NCBI GenBank assembly: GCA_963675915.1
Contig: OY780959.1
Location: 600,001-632,000, forward strand
Length of the DNA stretch: 32,000 nucleotides
Direction: 5' to 3'
Source of the DNA: Coprobacillaceae bacterium
Lineage (GTDB): Bacteria > Bacillota_I > Bacilli_A > Erysipelotrichales > Coprobacillaceae
The stretch's first letter is position 1, and the number at the start of each line of letters is the position of its first letter. Under the pieces are notes generated by a model that ran no database searches, was not told the DNA's origin, and was given only the letters and a program-made list of their open reading frames with translations. Below are positions 2,014 through 24,338 of the stretch, in pieces. The position numbers and the translations under genes were made by a program.

Positions 2014-2373
2014 CTAGATAATAAGCCGATTTTCCATGTTTTTAAATGCATATTTTTGATCGATTTCAAGGCCCTCGAGCAACCAGCGAAACTGTCTTTC
2101 ATCAATGACTCTGGTGTTTGAATTCTCATCTTCACGAACCTTGAACTTTCCGCTTTCAAGCCGTTTGAGAAACAGCCAAAACCCACCATTTTCGTAATAA
2201 AGAATCTTCATCCTGTTGCGAGCCCGGTTGACAAAAATGAACAAGCTGCCGTTCATCACATCCAAATCAAACTCCATGGCCACTATCAAAGACAAACCAT
2301 CGATTGACTTGCGCATGTCGACATGTCCAGTGGCAAGATAAATATGTTTGACATCATCAGTGTTGATAATCAT
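2014..2373 (-). CDS. tnpB: IS66 Orf2-like accessory protein TnpB (119 aa)
   Basis: Characteristic ~115-120 aa IS66 TnpB pattern (IYLATGHVDMRKSIDGLSLIV...FIFVNRARNRMKILYYENGGFWLFLKRLE). It overlaps tnpA by 4 nt. Confidence 0.9.
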   Translation of the reverse strand: MIINTDDVKHIYLATGHVDMRKSIDGLSLIVAMEFDLDVMNGSLFIFVNRARNRMKILYYENGGFWLFLKRLESGKFKVREDENSNTRVIDERQFRWLLEGLEIDQKYAFKNMENRLII

Positions 2374-2663
2374 TTGATAGCCCCAATCACTTTACAAAGC
2401 AGAGACTCATCAAATGTCAGTTCCACATCGTTGACAGTGATTGTAATCTTCCTGGTGGGATTGTCAATCAATACCGGGGCGAAGAAACGGCCATCAGACT
2501 TAACCGGTTGGCTGAGTTCATCAGTATCAATGATCTTACGCCATTTATAAAACGAATTCTTGTTGATCCCATTTTCCATGCACCAACGGCTAATGGATTT
2601 CCCGGAAATCCGCCAATTTTTAACTAGACCATTCCAATAATCATAACGCTCTTGAGCATTCAT
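2370..2663 (-). CDS. tnpA: IS66 Orf1-like accessory protein TnpA (97 aa, HTH-like)
   Basis: First gene inside the IS end, with an ATGA overlap onto tnpB. Small HTH-like protein (SISRWCMENGINKNSFYKWRK). Confidence 0.8.
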   Translation of the reverse strand: MNAQERYDYWNGLVKNWRISGKSISRWCMENGINKNSFYKWRKIIDTDELSQPVKSDGRFFAPVLIDNPTRKITITVNDVELTFDESLLCKVIGAIK

Positions 2664-2747
2664 AAAAAGTACCTCCTGTTATAACTTACAACGAAATTAT
2701 AACCCGAGGCACTAAATTTTAAAACGTGTCATCTATTTGACGCTTAC

Positions 2748-2755
2748 CTTGTAAT
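2748..2755. repeat. Target-site duplication CTTGTAAT, right copy, IS66 #1
   Basis: Identical to 305..312. Confidence 0.9.
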
Positions 2756-5700: not shown

Positions 5701-5792
5701 AATTAGTAGAGCATTTAAAAGAAATGAAGTATATTACAAGTCATCCAATAGAAAATGGCCACATCGCCTGTTGGGTGAAGAAAGTAAAATAG
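2756..5792 (+). pseudogene. Downstream ~1011 codons of the IS66-split YobI/KAP-like P-loop NTPase
   Basis: NVMFIEDLDRF (2937..) is the Walker-B-like signature I associate with YobI-family NTPases. It is followed by a long helical C-terminal region. The sequence continues the hydrophobic helix of fragment 2..312 in frame (…LLLLV-I-VVYLIEKIVLMVV…). Confidence 0.65.
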
Positions 5793-5808
5793 TATAAGTC
5801 TGAACTTT

Positions 5809-5843
5809 GAAAAACCAAGGATTTTGTCCTTGGTTTTTCATTT
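5809..5843 (+). terminator. Rho-independent terminator after the NTPase gene
   Basis: GAAAAACCAAGG-ATTTTGT-CCTTGGTTTTTC, a perfect 12-bp stem with a T-rich tail, 17 nt after the stop codon. Confidence 0.75.
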
Positions 5844-5981
5844 AATTAAAGTTCGAAATACGTTCTTTTAAAGGTTCTTTAGTAATGTGGAATGGAAAAT
5901 GACTTAAATGAATATTTAGATGAAGAGTTAAAGGGATAAACTATTTTCAAAGTTTATCCCTTAATAATTTGAGGTAAGTAA

Positions 5982-6407
5982 ATGAAAATAGCTGATGTAA
6001 AGATAAAAAATGGAATTTCTAAAAAAATTGAGCACCAAAATACCTATCGGTTTTTATGTCCGGAAGATTTAGAAGTGGACATCGGGGACTATGTTTTAGT
6101 AGACACTAAGCAAGGAAATAAGGAGTATCATAACGAAAATTTTAGGGTTGCCAAAATATTAGCTCTTAAAGAGGTTGATTTTGAAGAACTGATTTCAGAT
6201 AAAAGCCAGGTTAAACCATATCGCTATGTTGTTGCTAGATTATCAGAAAAAAATTTTGATAGAAGATGCATCAATACAACTAAAATCAGAGCTAAACTAT
6301 TTGATAGTTATCAAAAGATAGATCAATTGTCACGCATGAGAACGAAGAAAAATAACACGATTATAAAGTCAAAAAACGGAGGTAATAAAAAATTCAAGAT
6401 TAAATGA
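5982..6407 (+). CDS. Small basic hypothetical protein, paralog 1 (141 aa)
   Basis: RBS GAGGTAAG sits upstream of the ATG. It shares V(K/R)xxNGxxKKI…VxxGxYVxVxTxQ…ENFRV…FDRxC…KIRAK with the next ORF. Confidence 0.7.
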   Translation: MKIADVKIKNGISKKIEHQNTYRFLCPEDLEVDIGDYVLVDTKQGNKEYHNENFRVAKILALKEVDFEELISDKSQVKPYRYVVARLSEKNFDRRCINTTKIRAKLFDSYQKIDQLSRMRTKKNNTIIKSKNGGNKKFKIK

Positions 6408-6440
6408 TGAAAAATACATAACTATTGAAAGGGGCTTACT

Positions 6441-6809
6441 ATGAATGCAGTAAAAGTAAGATTTAGAAATGGGACCAATAAAAAAATTAGATTGACTCAA
6501 CCTTTGATTACATTTATTTGTCCTATAGAAGTTGAAGTTGGTGAGTATGTGGTAGTTGAAACCGGACAACCACATAAAAAACATAGTGATGAAAATTTTA
6601 GGGTAGGAAGAGTGGAGGAGATATTTGAAGGAACAGAGCTGATTAAAAAGGAGCGGCTTTATCACTTTGTACTGAGTAAGATTGATGTAGATGATTTTGA
6701 TCGGCAGTGCAGGAAAATAAGTATACTGAAATATAAGATTCGGGCAAAGTACCGCGAAGCAAAGAAACAAAAAATTGAAAGCATGAAATCGACTGCTGAC
6801 AAAGACTAA
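6441..6809 (+). CDS. Small basic hypothetical protein, paralog 2 (122 aa)
   Basis: RBS AAAGGGG upstream. Roughly 35-40 percent identical by eye to 5982..6407, on the same strand, 33 nt downstream. Confidence 0.7.
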   Translation: MNAVKVRFRNGTNKKIRLTQPLITFICPIEVEVGEYVVVETGQPHKKHSDENFRVGRVEEIFEGTELIKKERLYHFVLSKIDVDDFDRQCRKISILKYKIRAKYREAKKQKIESMKSTADKD

Positions 6810-6813
6810 CCTA

Positions 6814-6839
6814 GTGCAGAAAACGGCCGTTTTTTGCAC
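6814..6839 (+). terminator. Possible terminator hairpin
   Basis: GTGCAGAAAACGG/CCGTTTTTTGCAC near-perfect palindrome just after the stop codon. The T-run lies inside the stem, so this is a weak call. Confidence 0.35.
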
Positions 6840-6962
6840 GGTGTCGCAATTAGTGGTGTGAGTGAGGATTTAGACGATATTAGAGTGCTTTAATTGGTGT
6901 TTTTATCAAAGTGCAAAATCGAAAACTAGAATACGTTTTTAGAACAGAGTTGGGAGGTAATT

Positions 6963-7532
6963 ATGATATTTGGATATGCTAGAGTCAGCACTGACGATCA
7001 GAATCTAGATTTACAAATAGATGCGCTAAGTAATTATGGGGTTGATGAGATATTTGAGGAGAAAATATCAGGAAAGAAAATTGACCGTGAAAAATTGAAT
7101 GAGCTATTAATTAAACTAAGAGCAGGCGATACACTAGTTATTTGGAGATTGGATAGATTGGGGAGGACAATCAAGCAACTGTTGGATCTAGCGGAAGATT
7201 TTGAGAGGAAAGAAATCAAGTTAGTGAGCCTACGTGAGAACTTTGATACGGCGACACCAGCTGGTAAATTTGCATTTCATTTATTTTGTGCAATGGCTCA
7301 AATGGAAAGGGATGTTATATCTGAAAGAACAAAGTCCGGATTGGAGGCCGCCAGGAAAAGGGGACGGGTTGGTGGAAGAAAACCCATAGAAGATAAGACG
7401 ATTGAAACTGCAATGAAAATGTATTTTTCAAATAGTTTTTCTATTGAGGAAATTCTTTCTGTAACTGGTGTCAGTAAGTCGACATTATACAAATATATAA
7501 GGAAATCTAAGGAGAATCTAAAGAATCTATAA
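6963..7532 (+). CDS. Small serine recombinase (resolvase / Hin-Gin-Pin invertase family, 189 aa)
   Basis: N-terminal GYARVSTDDQNLDLQ with the catalytic Ser, then LVIWRLDRLGR, AQMERDVISERTKSGL, and a C-terminal HTH (GVSKSTLYKYI). RBS GGGAGG upstream. Confidence 0.92.
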   Translation: MIFGYARVSTDDQNLDLQIDALSNYGVDEIFEEKISGKKIDREKLNELLIKLRAGDTLVIWRLDRLGRTIKQLLDLAEDFERKEIKLVSLRENFDTATPAGKFAFHLFCAMAQMERDVISERTKSGLEAARKRGRVGGRKPIEDKTIETAMKMYFSNSFSIEEILSVTGVSKSTLYKYIRKSKENLKNL

Positions 7533-7614: not shown

Positions 7615-8613
7615 ATGAGGAGTGATATAATGATAGCAGGATATGTTCGGGTCTCGACCCAAAGACAAGCAGATGAAGGCGTCAGTATAGAAATGCAAAA
7701 GAATTTAATTGCAAAGCACGCACACATGATTGAAATATTAGGAAAAAATGATGATATTGTATTTTACGTTGATGATGGATTTTCAGGATCATCGTTGCAA
7801 CGTCCCAAAATGGTGGAGTTAATTGATGACATGAAAAGCGGCAAAATCAGTGTTTTACTCGCATACGATCTATCTCGAATTAGCAGGGATCTTTTTGATA
7901 GTAATTCTTTTATGAGAATAGCTCGTAAATATGGAGTTGTAATTAAATGTATCTACGATGATATTGATATTGAAACAGCAGCTAATAGATTCAGTACAAA
8001 TATCAAAATACTAACAAATCAATACGAGCGGGAAAGGGTAATTGAGAGAACTAATGATTCATTAGTATCAATAGCTGATAGTGGTAGATATCCTGCAGGA
8101 GGTAAACCGCCTTTTGGATATTATCGCGGTCCTGACAAGATGGTTTGTATCGATGAGCACGATTCCAAAATAGTAATAAAAATATTTGAAATGATGAGAA
8201 AGGGCTATGACATAAAAGATGTTGTTAGCTATTTGGGATTTGAAACTGACAAGTTGAAAGCCAATAAAGATACGGTGTTGCGTCTCGTCCAAAATACCAA
8301 GTACATCGGTATATACAAGTTCAAAGGCAAAGAGTATGATGACTTGATTCCGCCGATAATTGATAAGAAAACTTTTGAGATCGTAAATCGGTCATTTAAA
8401 AAAATTGAAGTCAAAAAAGACGATAATTACCTCTTTGACGGAATGGTTTTCTGTGAAAAATGTGGGTGCTTGACCAAATGCTCACATTCGATCAATCATC
8501 AAGGTAAAAAATATTATTACTACGTTTGTTATAGTTGTAAAAAGTCGGTGAGTCAGAGCACCCTAGAGAAACATCTGTTCAGTGTTCATATTCATCATAA
8601 CCCCATGTGTTAG
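7615..8613 (+). pseudogene. Large serine recombinase, N-terminal 331 codons, truncated by the IS3 insertion
   Basis: GYVRVSTQRQ catalytic motif, YDLSRISRD, a recombinase domain (GRYPAGGKPPFGY) and a Zn ribbon (CEKCGC…YYYVCYSCKK). The terminal TGT TAG codons belong to the IS3 left end. Confidence 0.85.
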
Positions 8614-8676: not shown

Positions 8677-9153
8677 ATGACTAAAACATATACGACTGAA
8701 GAAAAAATAAAATTGATCAATCAAACATTGCCACCACTCAACAAAACTGTTGTTCAGATTGCTGCTGAAACTGGAATCAAAACTTCGACTCTTTATTCCT
8801 GGAAGCGTAGATACCTAAAATGTGCCGTTAATTCCAAAATCAAGGAACGTTACAGCAAGGCTGAAAGATTCCACTTTATCGTCGAATCCGCTTCGTTGAA
8901 CGAACACGAACTTGGAGAATATTGCCGGCAAAAAGGAATTTATCCTGATGAGCTGACAAAGTGGAAAAATGAATTTCTCAATGTTTCCAGTCAAGATGAT
9001 TCTGCGAAGGCCGAATTGCACAAGGAGCGAAGAAAACGTAAAGAGCTGGAAAAAGAACTCAAGCGCAAAGAAAAGGCTTTGGCTGAAGCTGCTGCGCTAC
9101 TGGTTCTTGAAAAAAAGCTCCAAGCAATTTGGGACGAAGAAGAGGAAGATTAA
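8677..9153 (+). CDS. IS3-family transposase OrfA (HTH + leucine-zipper-like, 158 aa)
   Basis: HTH (IAAETGIKTSTLYSWKRRY), then a charged coiled coil (KERRKRKELEKELKRKEKALAEAAALL) ending at the slippery site. Confidence 0.88.
   Translation: MTKTYTTEEKIKLINQTLPPLNKTVVQIAAETGIKTSTLYSWKRRYLKCAVNSKIKERYSKAERFHFIVESASLNEHELGEYCRQKGIYPDELTKWKNEFLNVSSQDDSAKAELHKERRKRKELEKELKRKEKALAEAAALLVLEKKLQAIWDEEEED
9111..9117 (+). promoter_or_regulatory. Programmed -1 ribosomal frameshift heptamer A AAA AAG
   Basis: A_AAA_AAG read in the orfA frame (gaa aaa aag). The orfB frame (-1) is open from 9111, immediately after a TGA at 9108-9110. This is the classical IS3/IS150/IS911 signal. Confidence 0.8.
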
Positions 9154-10232
9154 CCTCTCTCAAATTGCGTAAACTAATCGTTTCATTGATCAAAGACGCC
9201 AACGAAAATGGTGCTCGATTGATTCCGGCGTGTAAAGTGGTTGGAATATCCAAACGAACATATGAACGGTGGACCAATGAAACAGATGTGTTGGCTGACA
9301 AACGAACGACAGCTATTAGACCTGTGCCGGCCAATAAGCTAAGCGATGATGAGCGCCAAGTCGTAATTGACACTGTCAATTCTCCTAAATACAATTCTCT
9401 GCCTCCATCAACGATAGTGCCTAAGTTAGCTGACGAAGGTAAATATATTGGCTCAGAATCAACCATTTACCGCATTCTAAGGGAAAATAAACAATTGAAA
9501 CATCGTGGAAGAAGCAAGGAGCCTCAAAAGCAGGTCCCGACAACACATATTGCCAAAGCACCCAACGAGGTTTGGAGTTGGGATATTACTTGGTTGCACC
9601 GTAAGGATGTTAGGGGAGTTTATTACAAGTTATACATGATAATGGATATTTTCAGCCGGAAGATTGTCGGACATGAAGTGTGGGAAACGGAAAATGCCGA
9701 ATATTCCCAAACTCTTATAAAAAGGACACTGTTAAAAGAAAAGATAAGTGGCAGATCGCTTGTGCTGCATTCAGATAATGGTGGCCCAATGAAAGCATCA
9801 TCATTCCTGGGAACGCTTGAAAAATTAGGTGTGCAAAGCTCGTTTTCAAGGCCGAGAGTAAGTAATGACAATCCATATTCGGAAGCACTGTTCAAAACGC
9901 TAAAATACATTCCTAAGTATCCAACCAGCGGGTTTGAATCACTGGAACATGCCCGAGAATGGACTAGTGAATTCGTCCATTGGTACAATGAAGTCCATTA
10001 CCATAGCGGCATCAATTATGTAACCCCAGGAAGCAGACATCGTGGCGAAGATATCGAGATATTGAAGAATCGCAAAAGTGTTTACGCCCTTGCAAGAATG
10101 AAGCATCCTGAGAGATGGAGCGGTAATACTAAAACCTGGGAATATCAAACAACGGTTGCCCTGAATCCAACCGATGAAGAAAAAAACATGATCCAGAAAA
10201 AGAAATATCAAACAAACCAAATCTACGCATAA
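9129..10232 (+). CDS. IS3-family transposase OrfB (DDE integrase core), probably made as an OrfAB fusion
   Basis: rve-type core: WSWDITWL…, LHSDNGGPM, NDNPYSEALFKTLKY, WYNEVHYHSGINYVTP. It lies in the -1 frame relative to orfA. Confidence 0.88.
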   Translation: MGRRRGRLTSLKLRKLIVSLIKDANENGARLIPACKVVGISKRTYERWTNETDVLADKRTTAIRPVPANKLSDDERQVVIDTVNSPKYNSLPPSTIVPKLADEGKYIGSESTIYRILRENKQLKHRGRSKEPQKQVPTTHIAKAPNEVWSWDITWLHRKDVRGVYYKLYMIMDIFSRKIVGHEVWETENAEYSQTLIKRTLLKEKISGRSLVLHSDNGGPMKASSFLGTLEKLGVQSSFSRPRVSNDNPYSEALFKTLKYIPKYPTSGFESLEHAREWTSEFVHWYNEVHYHSGINYVTPGSRHRGEDIEILKNRKSVYALARMKHPERWSGNTKTWEYQTTVALNPTDEEKNMIQKKKYQTNQIYA

Positions 10233-10395: not shown

Positions 10396-10463
10396 GTATG
10401 CGTCAAATTGAGCGGTGGGAGAATATTCGAGGGTAAGTGAAAAGGAATCCGGGGGACAGTTTG

Positions 10464-12245
10464 TTACCGTCTTGGGATTCCTTTTTTGAGGCCCTTGATC
10501 TCCTTCGTGGTCAATTGACGCAGGTATGTTGGCAGTTCCTTATTGTAGGGTAGTAGTTTTCTAATTTCTTCTTCATCAGTAGGATCGATTCCCGGCAGCC
10601 TTTCCAGTACGTACTCCATGTACATGTACGGTGACAGCTTGTTTTCCTGGGCGCTTAACAGTATCGAATAGATTATCGCTGCGGCTTGCGCTCCTTTGGG
10701 GCTTGTATAGAATTTACATCGATTCCTTGATACGACAAACGGTCGTATAGCCCGTTCCGTGCTTGAATTGTCGAATGGAACTTTCGGGTTATTAAATACC
10801 TCGCTGAATTCCTTTTCGTGGTTCATCAGATATTTGATTGCCTTAAGCAAGGTTGGTTTCATATTAACTTCGGGCAACAGGATTATTTCTTTAAGGTACG
10901 CTAAAAACTTATCGTAGATTGGCTTTACGACATCATTTCGGCCCTTATGAATATATTGGAAATATTTATCCTGGTTCTTTGAGTATTTTCCCTTAGCAGC
11001 CTGTTCAATTTTGTTTTTTGCTTCGAATACTTTTTTGTAATAGCGATAGCAAGTGTATTCGTAACTTTGATTTTTATCGGTGCCTTTTGGCAGTACATCC
11101 AAGGCTTCCCGGAAATAGCGAAAGGCATGAACGTGGCAAAAACAGTTGGTGACATTATCAAGCGACTCGTAAGCACCATAGGCGTCTGTTACCAGATAGT
11201 GGGAGTAATCACCGATGAAGTCTTCAACAACCCGTTTTGAACGACTAGGATCATAACGGTACAAGATAATTGGTTCGTCATACTGATTGCTCCGTAGAAC
11301 CCAAAGATATGATTTGCTTTGCGCTGGTTTGCCGTCTTCCTTTAGAACCTGGGTGGTGGTTTCATCGCAGTGGATCACTTCCATGGACAACAAGTCTTTG
11401 TGCATGCACTCAAACAACAGGTTAAGATGAACCGATGCCTTGATCATCCAGTTGGCCATATTCTGTCTAGGGATGACGATGTCATTTTCAAGGAAACGTT
11501 TTTCCTGAGCAGCCAGTGGCAAACCCTTTAAATATTTCATGTCCATTATAGTTGCAATCAGTGATGGCGATGCAATGCTTCCCTTGATAACCGGTTGTCT
11601 TCCAGGAACTTTCTTGTACGATGATTTACCTTCCAAGTTGTGTTCCTGACAAGCAACACATTCGTATACCGGTGTACGGTAAATATTCAATTCAACTTTG
11701 GCGGGTGTATAGACAAGTTCTTTTCTTTCATCGTATTTTTTGATTGTCATAGTTGTACCACAAAGATCGCAAACGTCGAAACCATCAGGAGTTTCTTCTG
11801 TAATTATATTGGTTTTGAGATGGTCATAATTGATATGTTTTTCTTTGGGGATTCTAACTTTTCTTTTGTAACCTTTGATTTCCGTAGTTTCGAATTCTTC
11901 GGTTTCAGTAGCATTATCAAAATCAACACCGATTAGACTAAACAGATCAGGACCTTGGTTATATTCCTTAATATTGTTGCGTTGGGAGCTGTAGCGGGCG
12001 TTTTCCAATAATTTGATGTATTCGTTTTTCTGTTGTAGTTCAAGTTTGCGTTCTTTGATTTCAGCTGCCATTTTATCAATATCGGAAGTCAATTTCTTAT
12101 TATCGGCAGATAAATTCTTCTTTTCTTTAATAAGTTTTTCTTTTGAAATACGGTCGGATTCGATTTTGGCATAGAGTTCCTGTTCACGTTGTTTGAACGC
12201 TTCGATAAGTTCTTCTTTTGTCATATCTTCCATCAATTTGATCAC
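10464..12245 (-). CDS. tnpC: IS66-family transposase TnpC (593 aa)
   Basis: Coiled-coil N-terminus, Zn finger (CDLCGTTM…CVACQEH) and DDE core (HCDETTTQVL…, TDAYGAYE, CFCHVHAFRYF). Paralogous to the protein at 410..1981. Confidence 0.9.
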   Translation of the reverse strand: MIKLMEDMTKEELIEAFKQREQELYAKIESDRISKEKLIKEKKNLSADNKKLTSDIDKMAAEIKERKLELQQKNEYIKLLENARYSSQRNNIKEYNQGPDLFSLIGVDFDNATETEEFETTEIKGYKRKVRIPKEKHINYDHLKTNIITEETPDGFDVCDLCGTTMTIKKYDERKELVYTPAKVELNIYRTPVYECVACQEHNLEGKSSYKKVPGRQPVIKGSIASPSLIATIMDMKYLKGLPLAAQEKRFLENDIVIPRQNMANWMIKASVHLNLLFECMHKDLLSMEVIHCDETTTQVLKEDGKPAQSKSYLWVLRSNQYDEPIILYRYDPSRSKRVVEDFIGDYSHYLVTDAYGAYESLDNVTNCFCHVHAFRYFREALDVLPKGTDKNQSYEYTCYRYYKKVFEAKNKIEQAAKGKYSKNQDKYFQYIHKGRNDVVKPIYDKFLAYLKEIILLPEVNMKPTLLKAIKYLMNHEKEFSEVFNNPKVPFDNSSTERAIRPFVVSRNRCKFYTSPKGAQAAAIIYSILLSAQENKLSPYMYMEYVLERLPGIDPTDEEEIRKLLPYNKELPTYLRQLTTKEIKGLKKGIPRR

Positions 12246-12392
12246 TTGAATACACCTCTTTCCACTAGTGGCATTGTAGCATAAAAAGCCCTGAAAGTCT
12301 TGATTTCACGGCAATTTATAAAAGATGTGAATAACTTCAAAAGGCAAAAGATAAACCCACAAAAAAATGTGAATTAATCTTATGCGTAGGGG

Positions 12393-12752
12393 CTATATCA
12401 TTACTGAAATGTCCTTGAATGCCCTTTTCTGTTCAATTGCCAATCCATCAAGCAACCAACTCAACTGACGGATGTCAACAACCATTGAAGTGATATCTTC
12501 ATCACCCTTGGGCCAGAAGAACTTATCTTTATTAAGCAGCTTCTTGGAGTGGATGACAAATCCGTTCTTGTCGAACTCCAGCATCTTGATGCTTTTCTTG
12601 GATCTGTTGCAAAAGATGTACAGGTTATTGGCGGTGGGGTCAAGATACAGGCTGTGGGATACAATCGCGCTTAACCCGGCGTAGCTTTTCCTAAGATCAG
12701 TTGCCCCAGGAACCAAATAGATATTGTCGAAGTCTTCAAACCTAAGCTTCAT
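12393..12752 (-). CDS. tnpB: IS66 TnpB (119 aa)
   Basis: IYLVPGATDLRKSYAGLSAIV…YIFCNRSKKSIKMLEFDKNGFVIHSKKL matches the IS66 Orf2 pattern. Confidence 0.9.
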   Translation of the reverse strand: MKLRFEDFDNIYLVPGATDLRKSYAGLSAIVSHSLYLDPTANNLYIFCNRSKKSIKMLEFDKNGFVIHSKKLLNKDKFFWPKGDEDITSMVVDIRQLSWLLDGLAIEQKRAFKDISVMI

Positions 12753-13104
12753 TGATCATACCTATCAGTTTAGCCAGAGTTTCCAAGTCTGTCGAGTCGT
12801 CAACCGAAATAGTAGCCTTGCCAATATTGACATCGAACCCCTTGGAAACAACTTTACTGTTGCAATCAACAATATCCAGCCTGACAAGAGCTGTAGTAAA
12901 TCCAGAATCCTTAACTTCATCTCTTGAGCGATTCAAATATGGCTTAGAATACTTGTGGTAGCAAAAAGCATTGTACGAAACATCGTTAGCCAAACACCAT
13001 TTTTTAATGGTCAGATCACTATTGGCAGCCTCAGTAAATATCACCTGCCACTGATCATCAGAATAATTCAAATCATCACACCTCCAATTCGATGTGATAA
13101 TCAT
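12742..13104 (-). CDS. tnpA: IS66 TnpA (120 aa)
   Basis: First ORF inside the IS end; overlaps tnpB by 11 nt. Confidence 0.75.
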   Translation of the reverse strand: MIITSNWRCDDLNYSDDQWQVIFTEAANSDLTIKKWCLANDVSYNAFCYHKYSKPYLNRSRDEVKDSGFTTALVRLDIVDCNSKVVSKGFDVNIGKATISVDDSTDLETLAKLIGMINEA

Positions 13105-13151
13105 ACCATCAATGACCTCGACAACCTACCACCGCTCTATTTGACGCATAC

Positions 13152-13353: not shown

Positions 13354-13387
13354 AGTATATTTTGTTATCTTTTGATGGCCGACTAAT

Positions 13388-13422
13388 GTAGCCAAGGGGG
13401 ATTCCCTTGGCTACATTTTTTT
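13388..13422 (+). terminator. Rho-independent terminator after the recombinase gene
   Basis: GTAGCCAAGGG-GGATT-CCCTTGGCTAC, an 11-bp GC-rich stem, followed by ATTTTTTT. Confidence 0.8.
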
Positions 13423-13799: not shown

Positions 13800-13828
13800 T
13801 TGAGATTCATGTGTAATTATGCCATAAT
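13800..13828 (+). promoter_or_regulatory. Candidate sigma-A promoter for the methyltransferase operon
   Basis: TTGAGA, a 17-nt spacer, then CATAAT, about 70 nt upstream of the ATG at 13897. Confidence 0.35.
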
Positions 13829-13896: not shown

Positions 13897-15024
13897 ATGG
13901 CAAATGAGAGATTATCAAATGCTAAAAACGCAAAAAAAGACGAATTTTATACACAATATGAAGACATTCAACGAGAGGTTAATGCATATTTGGAATATGA
14001 CCAAGAAGTATTCAAAGGGAAAACAGTGCTTTTACCTTGTGATGATCCCGAGTGGAGTGAATTTACAAGATTTTTTGCTCAAAATTTTGAAAGATTTGGG
14101 TTAAAAAAACTAATAAGTACAAGCTATGCAACAGAAAGTAAAAAGCTGAGAAATTATCAGCTGTCTTTATTTGAAGAACAGTCGCCTCAGTATGATAGTT
14201 CAAAAACAAAGACTAATGGAAAGATTTTTACTCTTACTCGCGATATAAACGAATCTGGAAATGTTGATATCGATGATTTGGAGTGGAATTATTTGGAGGG
14301 GGATGGTGACTTCAGAAGCAAGGAAGTAATTGAACTCAGAAATGAAGCTGACATAATTGTCACAAATCCTCCATTTTCACTTTTTAGGGAATTTATTGAG
14401 TGGATTTTTGAAGAAGACAAGAAATTTTTAGTTATCGGAAATCAAAATGCAATCACGTACAAAGATATTTTTTCTTTAATAAAAGACAATAAGTTATGGC
14501 TAGGTAATGGATTTAAAGGAAACATTGGTTATTTCAAATCTGTATATGAGGATATTGCAGTTGCATCTCAACATAAAGAAGGGTTTATTCGTATTTCAGG
14601 CGTAATGTGGTTTACAAATATCGAACACGGTAGAAGACATAGGCCCTTACAGCTTATGTCAATGAATGATAATTTAAAATATAGTAGACACAAACAAATT
14701 AAGGATAGTGGCTATATGAAATATGAGAATTATGATGCTATAGAGGTACCGTTTACGGATTCGATTCCATATGATTATTTAGGGATAATGGGAGTTCCAA
14801 TCACATTTATGAGTAAATATTGCCCGGAACAATTTGAAATATTAGGTATGTGTGAAAACCTTGATCTATACGGGTTAAAGACTCGAATATACAGTTCGCA
14901 GGAGTGTAGGCAAAGATATTTTGAGATTTTCGGAAGAAAAGGTACTTATGATTTGAATGCATCTGGAGTTATTAATGGAAAAAAGGTGTATCAGCGAATT
15001 TTAATTAGACGCAAGGAGATTTAG
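13897..15024 (+). CDS. N6-adenine DNA methyltransferase (EcoRI-methylase-like family, 375 aa)
   Basis: [10 protein letters not shown]…[10 protein letters not shown]…, then catalytic [14 protein letters not shown] (NPPF at 14365..14376). RBS AGAGGGG upstream. Confidence 0.85.
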
Positions 15025-15026
15025 TA

Positions 15027-16190
15027 ATGAAAACAGTGTTAAGAACAGATATTTCAATTGAAGATATCTGTAAGGGTTTTGTTTATAATGAGTATGAAGG
15101 AAAAGGTCTTTTTGGGCTATCAGGAAAACTAACTATTCAACCAGAATACCAACGCAATTATATTTACGCAGATGGAAAAAAGGATGTTGCTGTCATTGAG
15201 TCAATACTCAAGGGATATCCTTTGGGCCTGATATACTTCACAAAAGTTGGTGAGGAAAAATATGAAGTACTTGATGGTCAGCAAAGGATCACTAGTTTTG
15301 GGAGATTTGTATCTGGTAAATTTGCAATAAAAAATGAAAACGGAATACCACAATATTTTAGTGGTTTAGCTGGGGACATGCGAGATCTAATAATGAAAAC
15401 CAAACTTACAATTTATGAATGTGAGGGTTCAGAAAGCGAAATTAAAGAATGGTTTAAGACAATCAATATTGTAGGAATACCTCTAAACGAACAGGAGCTG
15501 TCAAATGCTATTCATTCTGGACCTTTTGTGACACTGGCAAAAGAAGAATTTAGTAATAGCCAGAATGCAAATATTCAAAAATGGGGTTCTTATATTTCTG
15601 GTAATGTAATTAGGCAAGATTACTTGCGCACAGCAATTAAATGGGTTAGTAAAGATAACATTGATGCCTATATGAGCAAACATCGACATGACAATAATAT
15701 TGACGAATTAAGAGTATATTTCACTAGTGTTATCGATTGGATATCTAGTGTTTTTGTAGATGTTGAAGATACGATGAAAGGTTTAGAGTGGGGAAAATTA
15801 TATGAGGAGTATCATGGCAATTCTTATAATCAACAGACGGTCTCAAAAATGGTAAAAACATATTTGAAAGATTATTATGTCATTGATAAAAAAGGCATCT
15901 ATGAATTTATTCTTGGCGGTTGCAAAGATTCAAAACTTTTAAACATAAGAGTTTTTAATGAAGTGACGAAGAAAAATGCATATGAAACTCAGACAGAACA
16001 GGCTAAATTAAAAGGCGAATCAAATTGTCCTCTATGCGCCTTGGGAAAAAATAATAACAGTAAACGAATTTGGAAAATTAAAGAGATGGACGCTGATCAC
16101 GTAACTGCTTGGAGCAGAGGAGGTATAACAGACATTACAAATTGTGAGATGTTATGTAAAACACACAATCGTGCAAAGGGAAACAGATGA
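15027..16190 (+). CDS. DUF262 (GmrSD N-terminal / ParB-like) domain protein with a C-terminal HNH nuclease (387 aa)
   Basis: IQPEYQRNY…[10 protein letters not shown] (DGQQR at 15273..15287). C-terminal CPLC…[33 protein letters not shown] is an HNH motif. The start is 2 nt after the MTase stop, and its RBS AAGGAG lies inside the MTase 3' end. Confidence 0.85.
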
Positions 16191-16302: not shown

Positions 16303-19026
16303 ATGCCAAGTGAAACACAACTAAAAATTGATGGACAAATACGCAATATTGATAAAGTTATATGCCGCAACATTGATGGTATAGGAAATAGTACAAGAGG
16401 GGCGGTATCTCAAGATATTTTGGCACAATTAAGGAACTTCGTTGAACACATAATGCTTAAATTTTATGCTGACGGTCAAGATATAGAAGACAGTTATGAT
16501 AATATTTGTAGTGCAATTAATTTCGTGAAAATTAAAGGAGAATTAAAGGTGTTGTGGAGGTTTCATGATTATCTTCAAATTGTTGCATCTCATTTCACTC
16601 TTGATGAGGAAAATTCGGAACGATTAATGCTAAAATATTACGAGTACCTTTTAAGAATTAAAGGTTTGCTTAAGGAAAAATATGATATTGATGTCTTAGG
16701 TAATATTGAGAAATTTCCTGTAAAAAAAGATCCTAACTTGCAAGAATATTATAATAAGATAGCTAAAAAAATTCAATCTTATCAACTACAAAATGTAGAA
16801 TTGCCAAACAAATATTATATACAAAAAATCAAACCTTTTTTTGTAGGGCAAAATATATTTTATGAGGTCACATTTGCTCCGGCAAATGACTGCGCGAGTA
16901 AATTTAACCGGGCTATAGCTTTTACAAGTATAGATATATTAAAAAATTATTCAGTAAGGTTGAATATAGTAGAGGATAGTATTAAAATTTTTGGAAAAAG
17001 TATGCCAATTTTAGTTATTGTAGGATGGGAGGTTGCAATTAGAAATTGCGAGTATAAAAATTTTACAAGTTTAATCAGAGGTTACCCTGCTAGAACTAGA
17101 TATTCAGAACAAAAGGGAGTTTCAATGTTTTTGTCTCATACGGGGTTAACTTTGCTTGAGGTAGTTGATTTTCCGTGTGAAAATTTTCAAAGAGTCAGAA
17201 ATTGGGCAACACAACATACAAAAGATGTTGTGTTCTTTGATGATTTAGAAGTGTGTCGCCAAATATTGCAAAAAAATAGTCCAGGAAGTAACGTGATAAG
17301 ATATTTACTTTATTGTATGAATAATAAAGTGATAAAAAATCAATATCATCCCAGTGAAAACCATCTATTATCTGGACTTCATCTGAAAAATGGGTGTATA
17401 CCGTTTGATAAAATTCCTTTTAACGCTTCTCTCTTAGGACATAATCCTAAACTTATGGATTTATTTGGGTGTATTGAGACTCAAAATAGACAACATGAAT
17501 TACTGGCGAGATTGGTGAGAAACAATACAGAAATGGAAGGGATTTTATTTACACCTATCAAAGATATTAAGGGATTTGCTGATGTTTCGCATCTAGCGAT
17601 GTTATATAATTCTAAGCTGTGGTCCGGTCATGTTGAAAATAGCAAATTAGTTATAGAGAATGGTCATATTTTTATAAATGGTTATAAGAATGACACGAGT
17701 GTTATTATCGGCAAACTAAAAAAAATGGCTAAGAATGGTGTTCAAAATTATTCTAATTCAGTTTTAGAGTGGTTAAATACTCCAAATAATGGGGTTGATT
17801 GTGATGAGAAGAGAGAGGCTTTAGTTCATATGTTTGATAAATCCAGTGTCGCACTTGTATATGGTGCTGCCGGTACTGGAAAATCGACTTTTATTAATCA
17901 TGTAGCTCATTTTTTTTCAAATAAAAGAAAACTTTTTTTAGCTCAGACTCACCCGGCTGTCGATAATTTGAAACGTCGAGTTAATGCATCCAACTGTGAG
18001 TTTATGACGATTGCAAAATTCTTAAATAAACAAATACCTGTGACTAAATTTGATTTGATAGTGATAGATGAATGCAGTACTGTAAACAATAAGGATATGA
18101 AAAATGTCTTGGAAAAGGGCAAATGCCAACTTTTGGTTCTAGTTGGAGATTCGTATCAAATATCGTCAATACGTTTTGGCAATTGGTTCAGCATAGCGCC
18201 ATATTTTATCTCTAAAAATTCAGTTTTGAATTTGACTATGCCCTATAGAAGTAATAGTGAGAAATTACTTGTTTTGTGGAATAGAGTGCGTAAAATGGAT
18301 GATAGAATTTTAGAGATAATTACTCGCCAAGGATATTCATCAACGTTAGACGATTCTATTTTTGTTGCAAATGAGATAGACGAAATAATACTTTGTCTTA
18401 ATTATGATGGATTATATGGAATTAATAACATCAATCTTTTTTTGCAAGAAAACAATCCTAACACAGCTGTACATTGGGGAATACAGCAGTACAAGATGGG
18501 CGATCCAATTTTATTTAATGACGTTGAACGTTTTTCTCCAATAATTTATAACAATATGAAAGGTCGTATTAAAGACGTTAAGATAATCAAGAGTGAAAAC
18601 AATGCTGAACGTATACAATTTGATATTGAGTTAGATAAGGCAATAAATGGGATGGATGCATTTGGCCAGGATTTTGAGTTATTGGAAAGCGCAAGTAATG
18701 GTAATTCAATTATTAGATTTTATGTAAATAAAGACAAGAGTGTTGACGATGATGATTCTGGGTCCTCAATGTCTATAGTGCCTTTTCAAGTCGCTTATGC
18801 TGTATCTATTCATAAGGCCCAGGGGCTTGAATATAACTCTGTAAAAATAGTCATAACTAACGAAGTAGATGAATTAATTACTCACAATATATTTTATACG
18901 GCTATTACGCGTGCAAGAAATCACTTAAAGATTTACTGGACACCGGAAATTGAAAAGAGAATTTTAGGTAATATTGAACCTAAAAAAAATAATAAAGATG
19001 CTCATCTTTTGAGAAGATACTTATAG
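16303..19026 (+). CDS. 907-aa protein: unknown ~500-aa N-terminal region + RecD/Dda-like SF1 helicase
   Basis: Helicase motifs in order: GAAGTGKST (17863..), AQTHPAVDNL, LIVIDECS, LVLVGDSYQISSI, MPYRS, VSIHKAQGLEYNSV, FYTAITRARNHLKIY. RBS AGGGGG upstream. Confidence 0.85.
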   Translation: MPSETQLKIDGQIRNIDKVICRNIDGIGNSTRGAVSQDILAQLRNFVEHIMLKFYADGQDIEDSYDNICSAINFVKIKGELKVLWRFHDYLQIVASHFTLDEENSERLMLKYYEYLLRIKGLLKEKYDIDVLGNIEKFPVKKDPNLQEYYNKIAKKIQSYQLQNVELPNKYYIQKIKPFFVGQNIFYEVTFAPANDCASKFNRAIAFTSIDILKNYSVRLNIVEDSIKIFGKSMPILVIVGWEVAIRNCEYKNFTSLIRGYPARTRYSEQKGVSMFLSHTGLTLLEVVDFPCENFQRVRNWATQHTKDVVFFDDLEVCRQILQKNSPGSNVIRYLLYCMNNKVIKNQYHPSENHLLSGLHLKNGCIPFDKIPFNASLLGHNPKLMDLFGCIETQNRQHELLARLVRNNTEMEGILFTPIKDIKGFADVSHLAMLYNSKLWSGHVENSKLVIENGHIFINGYKNDTSVIIGKLKKMAKNGVQNYSNSVLEWLNTPNNGVDCDEKREALVHMFDKSSVALVYGAAGTGKSTFINHVAHFFSNKRKLFLAQTHPAVDNLKRRVNASNCEFMTIAKFLNKQIPVTKFDLIVIDECSTVNNKDMKNVLEKGKCQLLVLVGDSYQISSIRFGNWFSIAPYFISKNSVLNLTMPYRSNSEKLLVLWNRVRKMDDRILEIITRQGYSSTLDDSIFVANEIDEIILCLNYDGLYGINNINLFLQENNPNTAVHWGIQQYKMGDPILFNDVERFSPIIYNNMKGRIKDVKIIKSENNAERIQFDIELDKAINGMDAFGQDFELLESASNGNSIIRFYVNKDKSVDDDDSGSSMSIVPFQVAYAVSIHKAQGLEYNSVKIVITNEVDELITHNIFYTAITRARNHLKIYWTPEIEKRILGNIEPKKNNKDAHLLRRYL

Positions 19027-21399: not shown

Positions 21400-21520
21400 G
21401 TAAGCGTCAAATAGATACACGGTTTAAAATTGAGTGCCTCGAGTTAGAATATCATTTTAATTTATAACAGTAGGTACTTTTTATGAATTCTCAAGAGCGT
21501 TATGATTATTAGAATGGTCT
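21400..21520 (+). mobile_element. Solo end / remnant of an IS66 #1-like element
   Basis: GTAAGCGTCAAATAGA IR plus ~105 nt matching the tnpA-proximal end of IS66 #1 (reverse complement of 2630..2747) with scattered mismatches. The tnpA start reads MNSQERYDY* (TGG changed to TAG). Similarity is lost after 21520. Confidence 0.75.
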
Positions 21521-21583: not shown

Positions 21584-21630
21584 GTATGCGTCAAATAGAG
21601 CGGTGGTAGGTTGTCGAGTTCATTGATGGT

Positions 21631-21993
21631 ATGATTATCACATCGAATTGGAGGTGTGATGATTTGAATTATTCTGATGATCAGTGGCAGGTGATATTTA
21701 CTGAGGCTGCCAATAGTGATCTGACCATTAAAAATTGGTGTTTGGCTAACGATGTTTCGTACAATGCTTTTTGCTACCACAAGTATTCTAAGCCATATTT
21801 GAATCGCTCAAGAGATGAAGTTAAGGATTCTGGATTTACTACAGCTCTTGTCAGGCTGGATATTGTTGATTGCAACAGTAAGGTTGTTTCCAAGGGGTTC
21901 GATGTCAATATTGGCAAGGCTACTATTTCGGTTGACGACTCGACAGACTTGGAAACTCTGGCTAAACTGATAGGTATGATCAATGAAGCTTAG
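21631..21993 (+). CDS. tnpA: IS66 TnpA (120 aa)
   Basis: One aa difference from 12742..13104 (K versus N). Confidence 0.75.
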   Translation: MIITSNWRCDDLNYSDDQWQVIFTEAANSDLTIKNWCLANDVSYNAFCYHKYSKPYLNRSRDEVKDSGFTTALVRLDIVDCNSKVVSKGFDVNIGKATISVDDSTDLETLAKLIGMINEA

Positions 21994-22342
21994 GTTTGAA
22001 GACTTCGACAATATCTATTTGGTTCCTGGGGCAACTGATCTTAGGAAAAGCTACGCCGGGTTAAGCGCGATTGTATCCCACAGCCTGTATCTTGACCCCA
22101 CCGCCAATAACCTGTACATCTTTTGCAACAGATCCAAGAAAAGCATCAAGATGCTGGAGTTCGACAAGAACGGATTTGTCATCCACTCCAAGAAGCTGCT
22201 TAATAAAGATAAGTTCTTCTGGCCCAAGGGTGATGAAGATATCACTTCAATGGTTGTTGACATCCGTCAGTTGAGTTGGTTGCTTGATGGATTGGCAATT
22301 GAACAGAAAAGGGCATTCAAGGACATTTCAGTAATGATATAG
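21983..22342 (+). CDS. tnpB: IS66 TnpB (119 aa)
   Basis: Protein identical to 12393..12752. Confidence 0.9.
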   Translation: MKLRFEDFDNIYLVPGATDLRKSYAGLSAIVSHSLYLDPTANNLYIFCNRSKKSIKMLEFDKNGFVIHSKKLLNKDKFFWPKGDEDITSMVVDIRQLSWLLDGLAIEQKRAFKDISVMI

Positions 22343-22489
22343 CCCCTACGCATAAGATTAATTCACATTTATTTGTGGGTTTATCTTATGCCTTTTGAAG
22401 TTATTCACATCTTTTATAAATTGCCGTGAAATCAAGACTTTCAGGGCTTTTTATGCTACAATGCCACTAGTGGAAAGAGGTGGATTCAA

Positions 22490-24274
22490 GTGATCAAATT
22501 GATGGAAGATATGACAAAAGAAGAACTTATCGAAGCGTTCAAACAACGTGAACAGGAACTCTATGCCAAAATCGAATCCGACCGTATTTCAAAAGAAAAA
22601 CTTATTAAAGAAAAGAAGAATTTATCTGCCGATAATAAGAAATTGACTTCCGATATTGATAAAATGGCAGCTGAAATCAAAGAACGCAAACTTGAACTAC
22701 AACAGAAAAACGAATACATCAAATTATTGGAAAACGCCCGCTACAGCTCCCAACGCAACAATATTAAGGAATATAACCAAGGTCCTGATCTGTTTAGTCT
22801 AATCGGTGTTGATTTTGATAATGCTACTGAAACCGAAGAATTCGAAACTACGGAAATCAAAGGTTACAAAAGAAAAGTTAGAATACCTAAAGAAAAACAC
22901 ATCAATTATGACCATCTCAAAACCAATATAATTATAGAAGAAACTCCTGATGGTTTCGATATTTGTGATCTTTGTGGCACAACCATGAAAATAAAGAAGT
23001 ACGATGAAAGAAAGGAACTTGTCTATACTCCTGCCAAAGTTGAATTGAATATTTACCGTACACCGGTATACGAATGTGTTGCTTGTCAGGAACACAACTT
23101 GGAAGGTAAATCATCTTACAAGAAAGTTCCTGGAAGACAACCGGTTATCAAAGGAAGCATTGCATCGCCATCACTGATTGCAACTATAATGGACATGAAA
23201 TATTTAAAGGGTTTGCCACTGGCTGCTCAGGAAAAACGTTTCCTTGAAAATGACATCGTCATCCCTAGACAGAATATGGCCAACTGGATGATCAAGGCAT
23301 CGGTTCATCTTAACCTGTTGTTTGAGTGCATGCACAAAGACTTGTTGTCCATGGAAGTGATCCACTGCGATGAAACCACCACCCAGGTTCTAAAGGAAGA
23401 CGGCAAACCAGCGCAAAGCAAATCATATCTTTGGGTTCTACGGAGCAATCAGTATGACGAACCAATTATCTTGTACCGTTATGATCCTAGTCGTTCAAAA
23501 CGGGTTGTTGAAGACTTCATCGGTGATTACTCCCACTATCTGGTAACAGATGCCTATGGTGCTTACGAGTCGCTTGATAATGTCACCAACTGTTTTTGCC
23601 ACGTTCATGCCTTTCGCTATTTCCGGGAAGCCTTGGATGTACTGCCAAAAGGCACCGATAAAAATCAAAGTTACGAATACACTTGCTATCGCTATTACAA
23701 AAAAGTATTCGAAGCAAAAAACAAAATTGAACAGGCTGCTAAGGGAAAATACTCAAAGAACCAGGATAAATATTTCCAATATATTCATAAGGGCCGAAAT
23801 GATGTCGTAAAGCCAATCTACGATAAGTTTTTAGCGTACCTTAAAGAAATAATCCTGTTGCCCGAAGTTAATATGAAACCAACCTTGCTTAAGGCAATCA
23901 AATATCTGATGAACCACGAAAAGGAATTCGGCGAGGTATTTAATAACCCGAAAGTTCCATTCGACAATTCAAGCACGGAACGGGCTATACGACCGTTTGT
24001 CGTATCAAGGAATCGATGTAAATTCTATACAAGCCCCAAAGGAGCGCAAGCCGCAGCGATAATCTATTCGATACTGTTAAGCGCCCAGGAAAACAAGCTG
24101 TCACCGTACATGTACATGGAGTACGTACTGGAAAGGCTGCCGGGAATAGATTCTAGTGATGAAGATGAAATCAGGAAACTACTACCATACAATAAAGAAC
24201 TGCCAAGATATCTGCGTCAATTGACAGCGAAGGAAATCAAAGAACTAAAAAAAGGAATCCCAAGACGGAAATAA
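22490..24274 (+). CDS. tnpC: IS66-family transposase TnpC (594 aa)
   Basis: Near-identical to 10464..12245. GTG start with RBS AGAGGTGG upstream. Confidence 0.9.
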   Translation: MIKLMEDMTKEELIEAFKQREQELYAKIESDRISKEKLIKEKKNLSADNKKLTSDIDKMAAEIKERKLELQQKNEYIKLLENARYSSQRNNIKEYNQGPDLFSLIGVDFDNATETEEFETTEIKGYKRKVRIPKEKHINYDHLKTNIIIEETPDGFDICDLCGTTMKIKKYDERKELVYTPAKVELNIYRTPVYECVACQEHNLEGKSSYKKVPGRQPVIKGSIASPSLIATIMDMKYLKGLPLAAQEKRFLENDIVIPRQNMANWMIKASVHLNLLFECMHKDLLSMEVIHCDETTTQVLKEDGKPAQSKSYLWVLRSNQYDEPIILYRYDPSRSKRVVEDFIGDYSHYLVTDAYGAYESLDNVTNCFCHVHAFRYFREALDVLPKGTDKNQSYEYTCYRYYKKVFEAKNKIEQAAKGKYSKNQDKYFQYIHKGRNDVVKPIYDKFLAYLKEIILLPEVNMKPTLLKAIKYLMNHEKEFGEVFNNPKVPFDNSSTERAIRPFVVSRNRCKFYTSPKGAQAAAIIYSILLSAQENKLSPYMYMEYVLERLPGIDSSDEDEIRKLLPYNKELPRYLRQLTAKEIKELKKGIPRRK

Positions 24275-24338
24275 ACTGTCCCTGGATTCCTTTTCACTTA
24301 CCCTCGAATATTCTCCCACCGCTCTATTTGACGCATAC

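Follow-up and report, generated by a model that had tools for sequence, protein, structure and literature searches.

In teaching and in annotation, DNA-cutting enzymes with an N-terminal DUF262 domain are at present treated as Type IV or modification-sensing nucleases, on the pattern of GmrSD, BrxU and SspE. How such an enzyme works when its gene directly follows that of a DNA methyltransferase is the question raised by a 32,000-nucleotide (nt) stretch of DNA from a Coprobacillaceae bacterium (contig OY780959.1, positions 600,001 to 632,000), the whole of which is called the window here. It encodes an EcoRI-family N6-adenine methyltransferase (methylase) followed at once by a DUF262-HNH nuclease. 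We put the probability at roughly 0.8 that this pair is a self-contained, two-gene, methylation-protected restriction-modification (R-M) system of the BanLI family. This reading is favoured by the linkage of the two genes across phyla, the conservation of these two genes only, the correlated divergence of their products and the experimental results published for BanLI. The window pair is an ordinary representative of a family that is known but under-described, and its interest lies less in the single locus than in the family-level question of a ParB-like/HNH nuclease acting as a methylation-blocked restriction enzyme. The pair and its signals, in window coordinates, are the following.

13897 to 15024, + strand: EcoRI-family N6-adenine DNA methyltransferase, modification subunit, 375 amino acids (aa); from Pfam, PADLOC and BLAST
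15027 to 16190, + strand: DUF262-HNH nuclease, restriction subunit, R.BanLI homologue, 387 aa; from PADLOC, BLASTP and Pfam
15132 to 15515, + strand: DUF262/GmrSD_N domain PF03235 of the nuclease, ParB/Srx-like nucleotide-binding fold, aa 36-163; Pfam, E-value (E) 5e-20
16080 to 16187, + strand: zinc-ribbon HNH nuclease domain PF01844 of the nuclease, aa 352-387; Pfam, E 8e-7
15013 to 15029, + strand: coupling junction of AAGGAG, TAG, 2-nt spacer and nuclease ATG; read from the sequence
13800 to 13828, + strand: candidate sigma-70-type promoter, TTGAGA-17-CATAAT with TG, about 70 nt 5' of the methylase start; consensus match only

Both open reading frames (ORFs) were read directly from the sequence. 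The methylase frame ends in a TAG stop at 15022-15024 and the nuclease ATG occupies 15027-15029, leaving a spacer of 2 nt ('TA', 15025-15026). The Shine-Dalgarno sequence AAGGAG at 15013-15018 lies within the last methylase codons, 8 nt 5' of the nuclease ATG. Upstream of the pair, promoter-like sites in the region were not more numerous than in shuffled sequences, and the candidate promoter is a consensus match only; a strong terminator-like hairpin (13385-13417) precedes it. No ORF of at least 60 aa was found on the + strand between 13354 and 13896, so that no gene of the size of a C-protein is evident there.

The methylase matches the EcoRI_methylase family PF13651 over its full length (aa 6-373 against positions 2-345 of 345, E 8e-124) and PADLOC model MTase_II PDLC03297 (E 2e-88), and it carries an NPPF motif (IVTNPPFS). 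NCBIfam yielded no model for the methylase or for the nuclease. The methylase of the EcoRI R-M system belongs to the same family, and on E. coli plasmids the gene next to R.EcoRI encodes a methylase 38% identical to that of the window. In contrast, the EcoRI nuclease, annotated on these plasmids as 'type-2 restriction enzyme EcoRI', is unrelated to the window nuclease, and its gene precedes that of the methylase, whereas in the window the methylase comes first. The partner of the window methylase is thus a DUF262-HNH protein instead of an EcoRI-type PD-(D/E)XK nuclease. The PF13651 family also serves a nuclease unrelated to DUF262-HNH, as in EcoRI of E. coli plasmids.

In the nuclease, the DUF262 domain displays the motifs YQR (aa 41-43), DGQQR (aa 83-87, nt 15273-15287) and QE..N (aa 156-160). 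The predicted catalytic residues of the HNH domain, D357-H358, are encoded at 16095-16100, with a CxxC motif (aa 334-337) before them and N372 and N381 after them. A Pfam search of the protein detected no DUF1524 (PF07510). The first-pass annotation of this locus had proposed the coordinates, the 2-nt distance between stop and start and the AAGGAG within the last methylase codons, which were exact to the base, and its description of DGQQR combined with a C-terminal HNH and no DUF1524 was borne out by Pfam. When 51 diverse whole-length members of the family (31-60% identity) were aligned, Q42, R43, D83, G84, R87, Q156, E157, N160, W238, F243, R308, F310, C334 and H358 were invariant, and C337, D357, N372, C377 and N381 were kept in at least 90% of the aligned members. 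The invariant residues indicate selection on the ParB/Srx-type nucleotide-binding motifs as well as on the zinc-ribbon HNH site.

With the same 51-sequence alignment as input, AlphaFold2 produced a confident model of the nuclease, with a mean predicted local distance difference test score (pLDDT) of 92.7 and a predicted template modelling score (pTM) of 0.78. The nuclease can be read, from its N-terminus, as a ParB/Srx-like nucleotide-binding domain joined through a helical middle region to a zinc-ribbon HNH. Foldseek searches of the PDB revealed domain-level resemblances only. The N-terminal domain matched ParB bound to cytidine diphosphate (6sdk), Noc and PadC (6ryk), the matches to 6sdk and 6ryk being globally weak, and the C-terminal region matched McrA and, with a probability of 0.93, the Gme HNH nicking endonuclease (4h9d). 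The best PDB fold match was BrxU (7p9k, E 2e-3), with a global template modelling (TM) score of 0.24. A sequence search of the PDB with the nuclease returned BrxU alone, at an insignificant E of 0.63.

These results bear on the possibility that the nuclease is a plain Type IV enzyme of the GmrSD/BrxU kind that happens to lie beside a functionally unrelated, orphan or phage-derived methylase. The window nuclease does share with GmrSD and BrxU the layout of an N-terminal DUF262 domain (ParB/Srx-like, DGQQR) followed by a His-Me-finger nuclease, and BrxU is its best fold match. Relatives of the nuclease are labelled 'DUF262 domain-containing protein' in RefSeq and 'McrA' by JGI auto-annotation, the latter label pointing the same way, and EcoRI-family methylases do occur alone in phages, for example in mycobacteriophages. 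On the other side, the similarity to BrxU is insignificant in sequence and low in global TM-score, and the C-terminal DUF1524 of GmrSD and BrxU is replaced in the window by a zinc-ribbon PF01844 HNH in a protein of about 390 aa rather than about 580 aa. We conclude that the nuclease is related to GmrSD and BrxU at the level of the domain kit only. Cleavage by GmrSD and BrxU is stimulated by nucleoside triphosphates (NTPs), which suggests a role for the conserved motif in the window nuclease.

A closer relative is found in BanLI of Bifidobacterium animalis subsp. lactis, a Type II system in REBASE (O'Connell Motherway et al. 2014, PMC3990576). According to a 2026 paper on B. animalis (PMC13091528), the REBASE Type II enzyme Ban8145ORF124P (RTCAGG) corresponds to a gene annotated 'DUF262 domain-containing protein'. 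Our literature searches, which covered EcoRI-family methylases with DUF262, PF13651, follow-ups of BanLI and Bacteroides methylomes, found the architecture described only in these two Bifidobacterium papers. Using the published primer sequences, we recovered the BanLI locus from a human-gut metagenome contig (L087), on which the primer for the 3' end of the methylase gene and the primer downstream of the nuclease gene matched exactly, and the two forward BanLI primers agreed, on translation, with the start of the methylase and that of an integrase. The contig carries the integrase at 2200-3420, M.BanLI at 3477-4589 and R.BanLI at 4589-5707, the last two overlapping by 1 nt. The recovered R.BanLI sequence is identical to ACL28937.1 and to other entries named 'HNH endonuclease family protein [Bifidobacterium]'. 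It scored 905 bits over positions 1-372 of 372 of PADLOC model PDLC03418; this near-self score over the full model suggests that PDLC03418 is in effect R.BanLI, and the model appears to have been built on it. We also observed that the primer RM.BanLIF matches the start of the phage-type integrase (L087 2200-3420) and not that of the methylase, so the construct used in the BanLI plaque assay also carried the integrase gene.

The window pair resembles BanLI in both proteins. Its nuclease matches PDLC03418 (REase_II) at E 2e-83 (aa 19-386 against 13-371 of 372) and is 40% identical to R.BanLI over its whole length (aa 19-387 against 13-372, E 1e-93, BLASTP); the DUF262-only candidates of PADLOC (NsnA, PD-T4-2_A and HEC-05/06) matched its N-terminal domain only. 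The methylase is 40% identical to M.BanLI (E 4e-79). In both loci an EcoRI-like methylase, forming N6-methyladenine (m6A), is followed on the same strand by an abutting DUF262-HNH nuclease, with a 2-nt spacer in the window and the 1-nt overlap in BanLI. The protein sizes are close (370 and 372 aa in BanLI, 375 and 387 aa in the window), both pairs match the same PADLOC models and, as described below, no further conserved gene accompanies the window pair. The shared gene order, the abutting or overlapping junction and the 40% identity of both proteins make the window pair a member of the BanLI family. It differs from BanLI in that its nuclease belongs to a much larger and better conserved clade of gut Clostridia and other phyla, with 56-78% identity. 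As the identity to BanLI is a mere 40%, the BanLI recognition sequence RTCAGG is not transferable to the window pair.

When expressed in E. coli, M.BanLI, which the authors aligned with M.EcoRI, produces RTC(m6A)GG on one strand only (PMC3990576). The cloned BanLI locus lowered the plating of P1vir to about 10^-1, and pre-methylation by M.BanLI raised the transformation of B. animalis 1.8-fold (PMC3990576). The BanLI methylase and nuclease coexist stably in E. coli and in Bifidobacterium, which also argues against a Type IV enzyme. Its authors viewed the single methylase of BanLI as the sign of a degenerate Type IIS system that had lost its second methylase (PMC3990576).

To place both pairs in a wider frame, we collected relatives of the window nuclease. 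The databases hold more than 8000 at E < 1e-5, the best 120 of which are all about 387 aa long and 73-78% identical, and 429 representatives of 50%-identity clusters were obtained at E <= 1e-30. For the locus survey, one genome per species was scanned with the 51-member alignment. Of 341 confirmed stretches, we kept the best 80 loci, whose nucleases are 56-78% identical to that of the window. The 80 loci span at least ten phyla plus one archaeal metagenome-assembled genome (MAG; Pacearchaeota), and include Bacillota (Clostridia), Bacteroidota, Chloroflexota, Patescibacteria (candidate phyla radiation, CPR), Actinomycetota, Pseudomonadota, Spirochaetota, Verrucomicrobiota/Kiritimatiellota and Chlorobiota. 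Every locus was searched by tblastn with the window methylase, and the 74 loci with at least 1150 bp of DNA upstream of the nuclease were taken as testable.

An EcoRI-family methylase was present upstream on the same strand in 72 of the 74 testable loci. Its stop codon fell between -20 and +60 nt of the nuclease start in 60 loci, and a 4-nt ATGA overlap was the commonest junction (26 loci). In a further 12 loci the gap was wider, from 139 to 3710 nt, and seven of these gaps hold inserts: Bro-N (three times), RhuM, DUF2806, Schlafen AlbA_2/HATPase_c_4 and two unassigned. The remaining two loci are cut by contig ends, one showing a Fic gene and then the end of the contig (L033), the other a C-terminal fragment of the methylase at the end itself (L043). 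No locus among the 74 demonstrably lacks the methylase. Two adjoining genes in an operon are unremarkable on their own, but their recurrence in essentially every relative examined exceeds chance.

Extra genes were observed at the junction of methylase and nuclease or just 5' of the nuclease in L024 (5156-5998), L060 (5127-5972), L030 (2940-4349 and 5157-5993), L029 (1308-2243), L021 (5107-5970) and L033 (248-1288), Fic/DOC also being among their types. The junction seems to be a hotspot for passenger genes. Type I R-M operons often harbour genes of the Bro-N, RhuM, DUF2806, Schlafen and Fic types.

When the ORFs of at least 80 aa in the loci were clustered all against all, a nuclease cluster (84 loci) and a methylase cluster (77 loci) were the only two that proved real and conserved, and the seven loci without a methylase in this clustering are those lacking upstream DNA. 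The clustering revealed no second methylase, no controller-sized partner of at least 80 aa, no helicase and no third conserved gene; other recurrent clusters, consisting of ORFs of about 100 aa, were taken to be shadow ORFs of the nuclease and the methylase. The pairwise divergences of methylase and nuclease are correlated (Spearman 0.23, a value reached in 0 of 300 label permutations), with the methylase evolving faster (mean pairwise identity 54%, against 64% for the nuclease). A single methylase, coupled directly to the nuclease, is universal in the family and native to its design. The single methylase of BanLI is not the product of gene loss in Bifidobacterium.

The two genes move together and form a horizontally mobile pair. 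We found this pair on plasmids of Moraxella, Enterococcus faecium, Pediococcus, Apilactobacillus, Leuconostoc, Macrococcoides, many actinobacteria, Aeromonas, Variovorax and Sulfitobacter, among them small ones such as a 9-kb Moraxella plasmid and 9-10-kb plasmids of the lactobacillus group, and the linkage on plasmids persists down to about 38% nuclease identity. The Flavobacterium phage vB_FspS_laban6-1 (L090 1781-4143) encodes a complete methylase and DUF262-HNH pair with a 4-nt overlap; the phage pair lies on the opposite strand beside the tape-measure gene and is moron-like. On plasmid pBC of B. choerinum (L083 917-3198 and 9422-10588), the methylase is intact and the nuclease gene is split by the insertion of the chloramphenicol-efflux gene cmx, the C-terminal 272 aa of the nuclease remnant being annotated 'HNH endonuclease signature motif containing protein'. 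This pattern of decay fits R-M logic, since an R-M system tolerates the loss of its nuclease as long as the methylase is intact.

The survey makes a Type IV enzyme with an unrelated neighbour highly improbable. In every locus that could be checked, in many phyla, the methylase is upstream and usually overlaps the nuclease start, and independent genes would not remain coupled through so much horizontal transfer. Whereas GmrSD and BrxU act without a cognate methylase, the window-type enzyme is always paired with one, and methylation would block rather than enable its cutting. The first-pass annotation had left two options open, an R-M-like module and a Type IV enzyme riding with an orphan methylase. 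It had set beforehand, as a possible refutation, that the two genes might be unlinked in other genomes; the counts given above show linkage, and together with the conservation of two genes, the correlated divergence and the BanLI results (PMC3990576) they strongly favour the first option and disfavour the second. The architecture, which it had considered unusual for a restriction enzyme, has a precedent in BanLI. Its statement that DUF262 enzymes are modification-dependent or modification-sensing agrees with the literature searched, which treats the domain only under that heading; the added clause that they normally have no cognate methylase was too broad, since a cognate methylase accompanies every BanLI-type enzyme of the subfamily and modification systems are found next to SspE and BrxU.

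The obligatory linkage is equally compatible with an SspE-like scheme, in which the nuclease would be activated by sensing host m6A through its DUF262 NTPase domain and would then nick or cut unmarked invader DNA, the methylase serving as both activator and self label. SspE, likewise a DUF262 nuclease, cooperates with a module that modifies the host DNA, and the invariance of the nucleotide-binding motifs in DUF262 would suit such sensing. The differences are that the SspE system uses phosphorothioate placed by SspABCD and that its nuclease domain is DUF1524, whereas the C-terminal nuclease of the window protein is a PF01844 HNH. There are no ssp genes and no ssp/dnd context in the window, the neighbours being insertion sequence (IS) elements, a PDC-S53 helicase and an OLD-family protein. 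Protection also explains the BanLI results more simply, as pre-methylated plasmid transforms better. We consider the SspE-like scheme improbable.

We therefore return to methylation-protected R-M as the preferred reading and, upon the gene structure, domain content, family membership and obligatory linkage established here, propose how such a system could work. The methylase would be translated first and would place m6A on a specific short sequence of the host DNA, and ribosomes arriving from the methylase gene would then translate the downstream nuclease. The nuclease would recognise the same sequence in unmethylated incoming DNA and cut it by means of its zinc-ribbon HNH, while methylated host DNA would be spared. 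Linkage of the two genes suggests that the methylase and the nuclease, as separate proteins, have a common recognition site. The helical middle region (about aa 165-330) may carry the recognition of the site and of its methylation state, and the DUF262 domain may gate or license cleavage by binding NTP, as in GmrSD and BrxU. An NTP requirement, which is atypical for Type II, is plausible given the invariant ParB/Srx-type motifs. Blocking of the window nuclease by methylation, its NTP dependence and the role of each domain are what we infer from these comparisons.

Several points weigh against methylation-protected R-M. Markov-corrected 4-6-mer statistics on 0.9 Mb of pooled carrier DNA showed no system-specific motif avoidance; for these carrier loci, taken without a non-carrier control, they gave generic palindrome avoidance only (CTAG, GATC, GGCC and CATG) and neither an AATT-type nor an RTCAGG-type signal. 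The literature searched gave no biochemical data, such as a cleavage site, a cofactor requirement or a direct demonstration of methylation-blocked cutting, for any family member, and BrxU, the only solved DUF262 nuclease returned by our searches, is modification-dependent. The restriction phenotype of BanLI is weak (10-fold in plating, 1.8-fold in transformation), and the construct also held the upstream integrase gene. Finally, when a methylase marks a single strand of an asymmetric site, as in BanLI, replication yields a daughter duplex that bears no mark. An enzyme that simply cuts every unmethylated site could not cope with this, and the actual mechanism must be more elaborate than plain Type II.

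Like M.BanLI, Type III and Type IIL (MmeI-like) systems methylate a single strand of an asymmetric site, and they need extra logic (such as two inverse sites and NTP-dependent communication) to avoid the cutting of freshly replicated host DNA. Those systems hold methylase and nuclease in one complex or polypeptide with helicase-like or fused domains, whereas the BanLI type consists of separate small proteins and its ParB-like domain is the only candidate for NTP binding. If other members mark one strand as BanLI does, their nucleases need some means of sparing the unmarked duplex, and the family might represent a distinct R-M class, in which a single monomeric methylase marks one strand, the ParB-like NTP-binding domain acts as a nucleotide-gated switch or sliding clamp, and cutting occurs only when two unmodified sites or enzyme molecules communicate. 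We regard this extension as doubtful. If true, it would mean that Type III-like discrimination of self from non-self can be built from a ParB/Srx fold and an HNH without a helicase-like motor, and that the DUF262 scaffold has come to serve restriction of two kinds, modification-blocked and modification-dependent.

At the level of the family, a very large DUF262 subfamily is wired to an EcoRI-type methylase in a classical-looking R-M arrangement, across most bacterial phyla, CPR, an archaeal MAG, plasmids and a phage. This linkage affects the annotation of defence islands and methylomes, and it points to probable obstacles to transformation in gut Clostridia, enterococci, lactic acid bacteria and bifidobacteria. 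As an unexplored enzyme class, the family could also be a source of new nucleases that are sequence-specific and perhaps NTP-gated.

In the window, the pair sits in an 8.4-kb stretch of 31.5% guanine plus cytosine (GC), together with two further genes.

16303 to 19026, + strand: superfamily 1 (SF1) helicase, 907 aa, PADLOC single-gene candidate PDC-S53, 1270 bits
19187 to 21175, + strand: OLD-family ATPase-TOPRIM protein, AAA_15 plus OLD-like TOPRIM; best PADLOC matches Old, AriA and GajA, all partial

It is conceivable that the pair, the helicase and the OLD-family protein form one four-gene system, given that all four genes lie on one strand between two copies of IS66 and that a helicase is found directly 3' of the pair in one other locus (L032). 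Against this, the helicase accompanies the pair in only 1 of 87 other loci and the OLD-family protein in 0 of 87, and the ORF clustering gave no conserved third gene. Gaps of 112 nt after the nuclease and 160 nt after the helicase separate the genes, and PDC-S53 is catalogued as a single-gene candidate. A four-gene system is scarcely credible, and we rejected it because the neighbouring genes are not conserved. The helicase in L032, an unrelated MAG locus, lies directly 3' of the R-M pair (4171-7014, tblastn 850 bits) and was seen in that place in no other locus searched; its recurrence could be accidental, both being at home in defence islands, or reflect a small block that moves. The OLD-family gene has no obvious partner gene before the downstream IS66 copy.

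The features flanking this block are as follows.

10396 to 13151, - strand: left IS66 copy (tnpA/tnpB/tnpC), 8-bp target duplication TTTTAATG at 10388-10395/13152-13159
21584 to 24338, + strand: right IS66 copy (tnpA/tnpB/tnpC), 8-bp target duplication GATTAACA at 21576-21583/24339-24346
2757 to 5792, + strand: YobI-like P-loop NTPase protein, 1011 aa, E 7.5e-71
6963 to 7532 and 7615 to 8613: two serine recombinase genes
8677 to 10232: IS3-type element

The two IS66 copies are 2.75 kb long, 98% identical and inverted, and bracket the 8.4-kb block. Each has its own 8-bp target duplication, which indicates independent insertions, and past movement of the block as an IS66 composite transposon was rejected on this ground; the copies could now mobilise the block in that manner. 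A 104-nt inverted repeat with 89% complementarity is possibly the remnant of another element; its left arm (2626-2729) lies next to a third IS66-family element (410-2373), and its right arm (21417-21520) falls just within the flank of the right IS66 copy. The YobI-like NTPase gene, a neighbour of the two serine recombinase genes and the IS3-type element in the same mobile region, may be another conflict or defence gene. To the right of the block, the window continues with ABC-F, MarR and ABC-2 transporter genes at 41% GC.

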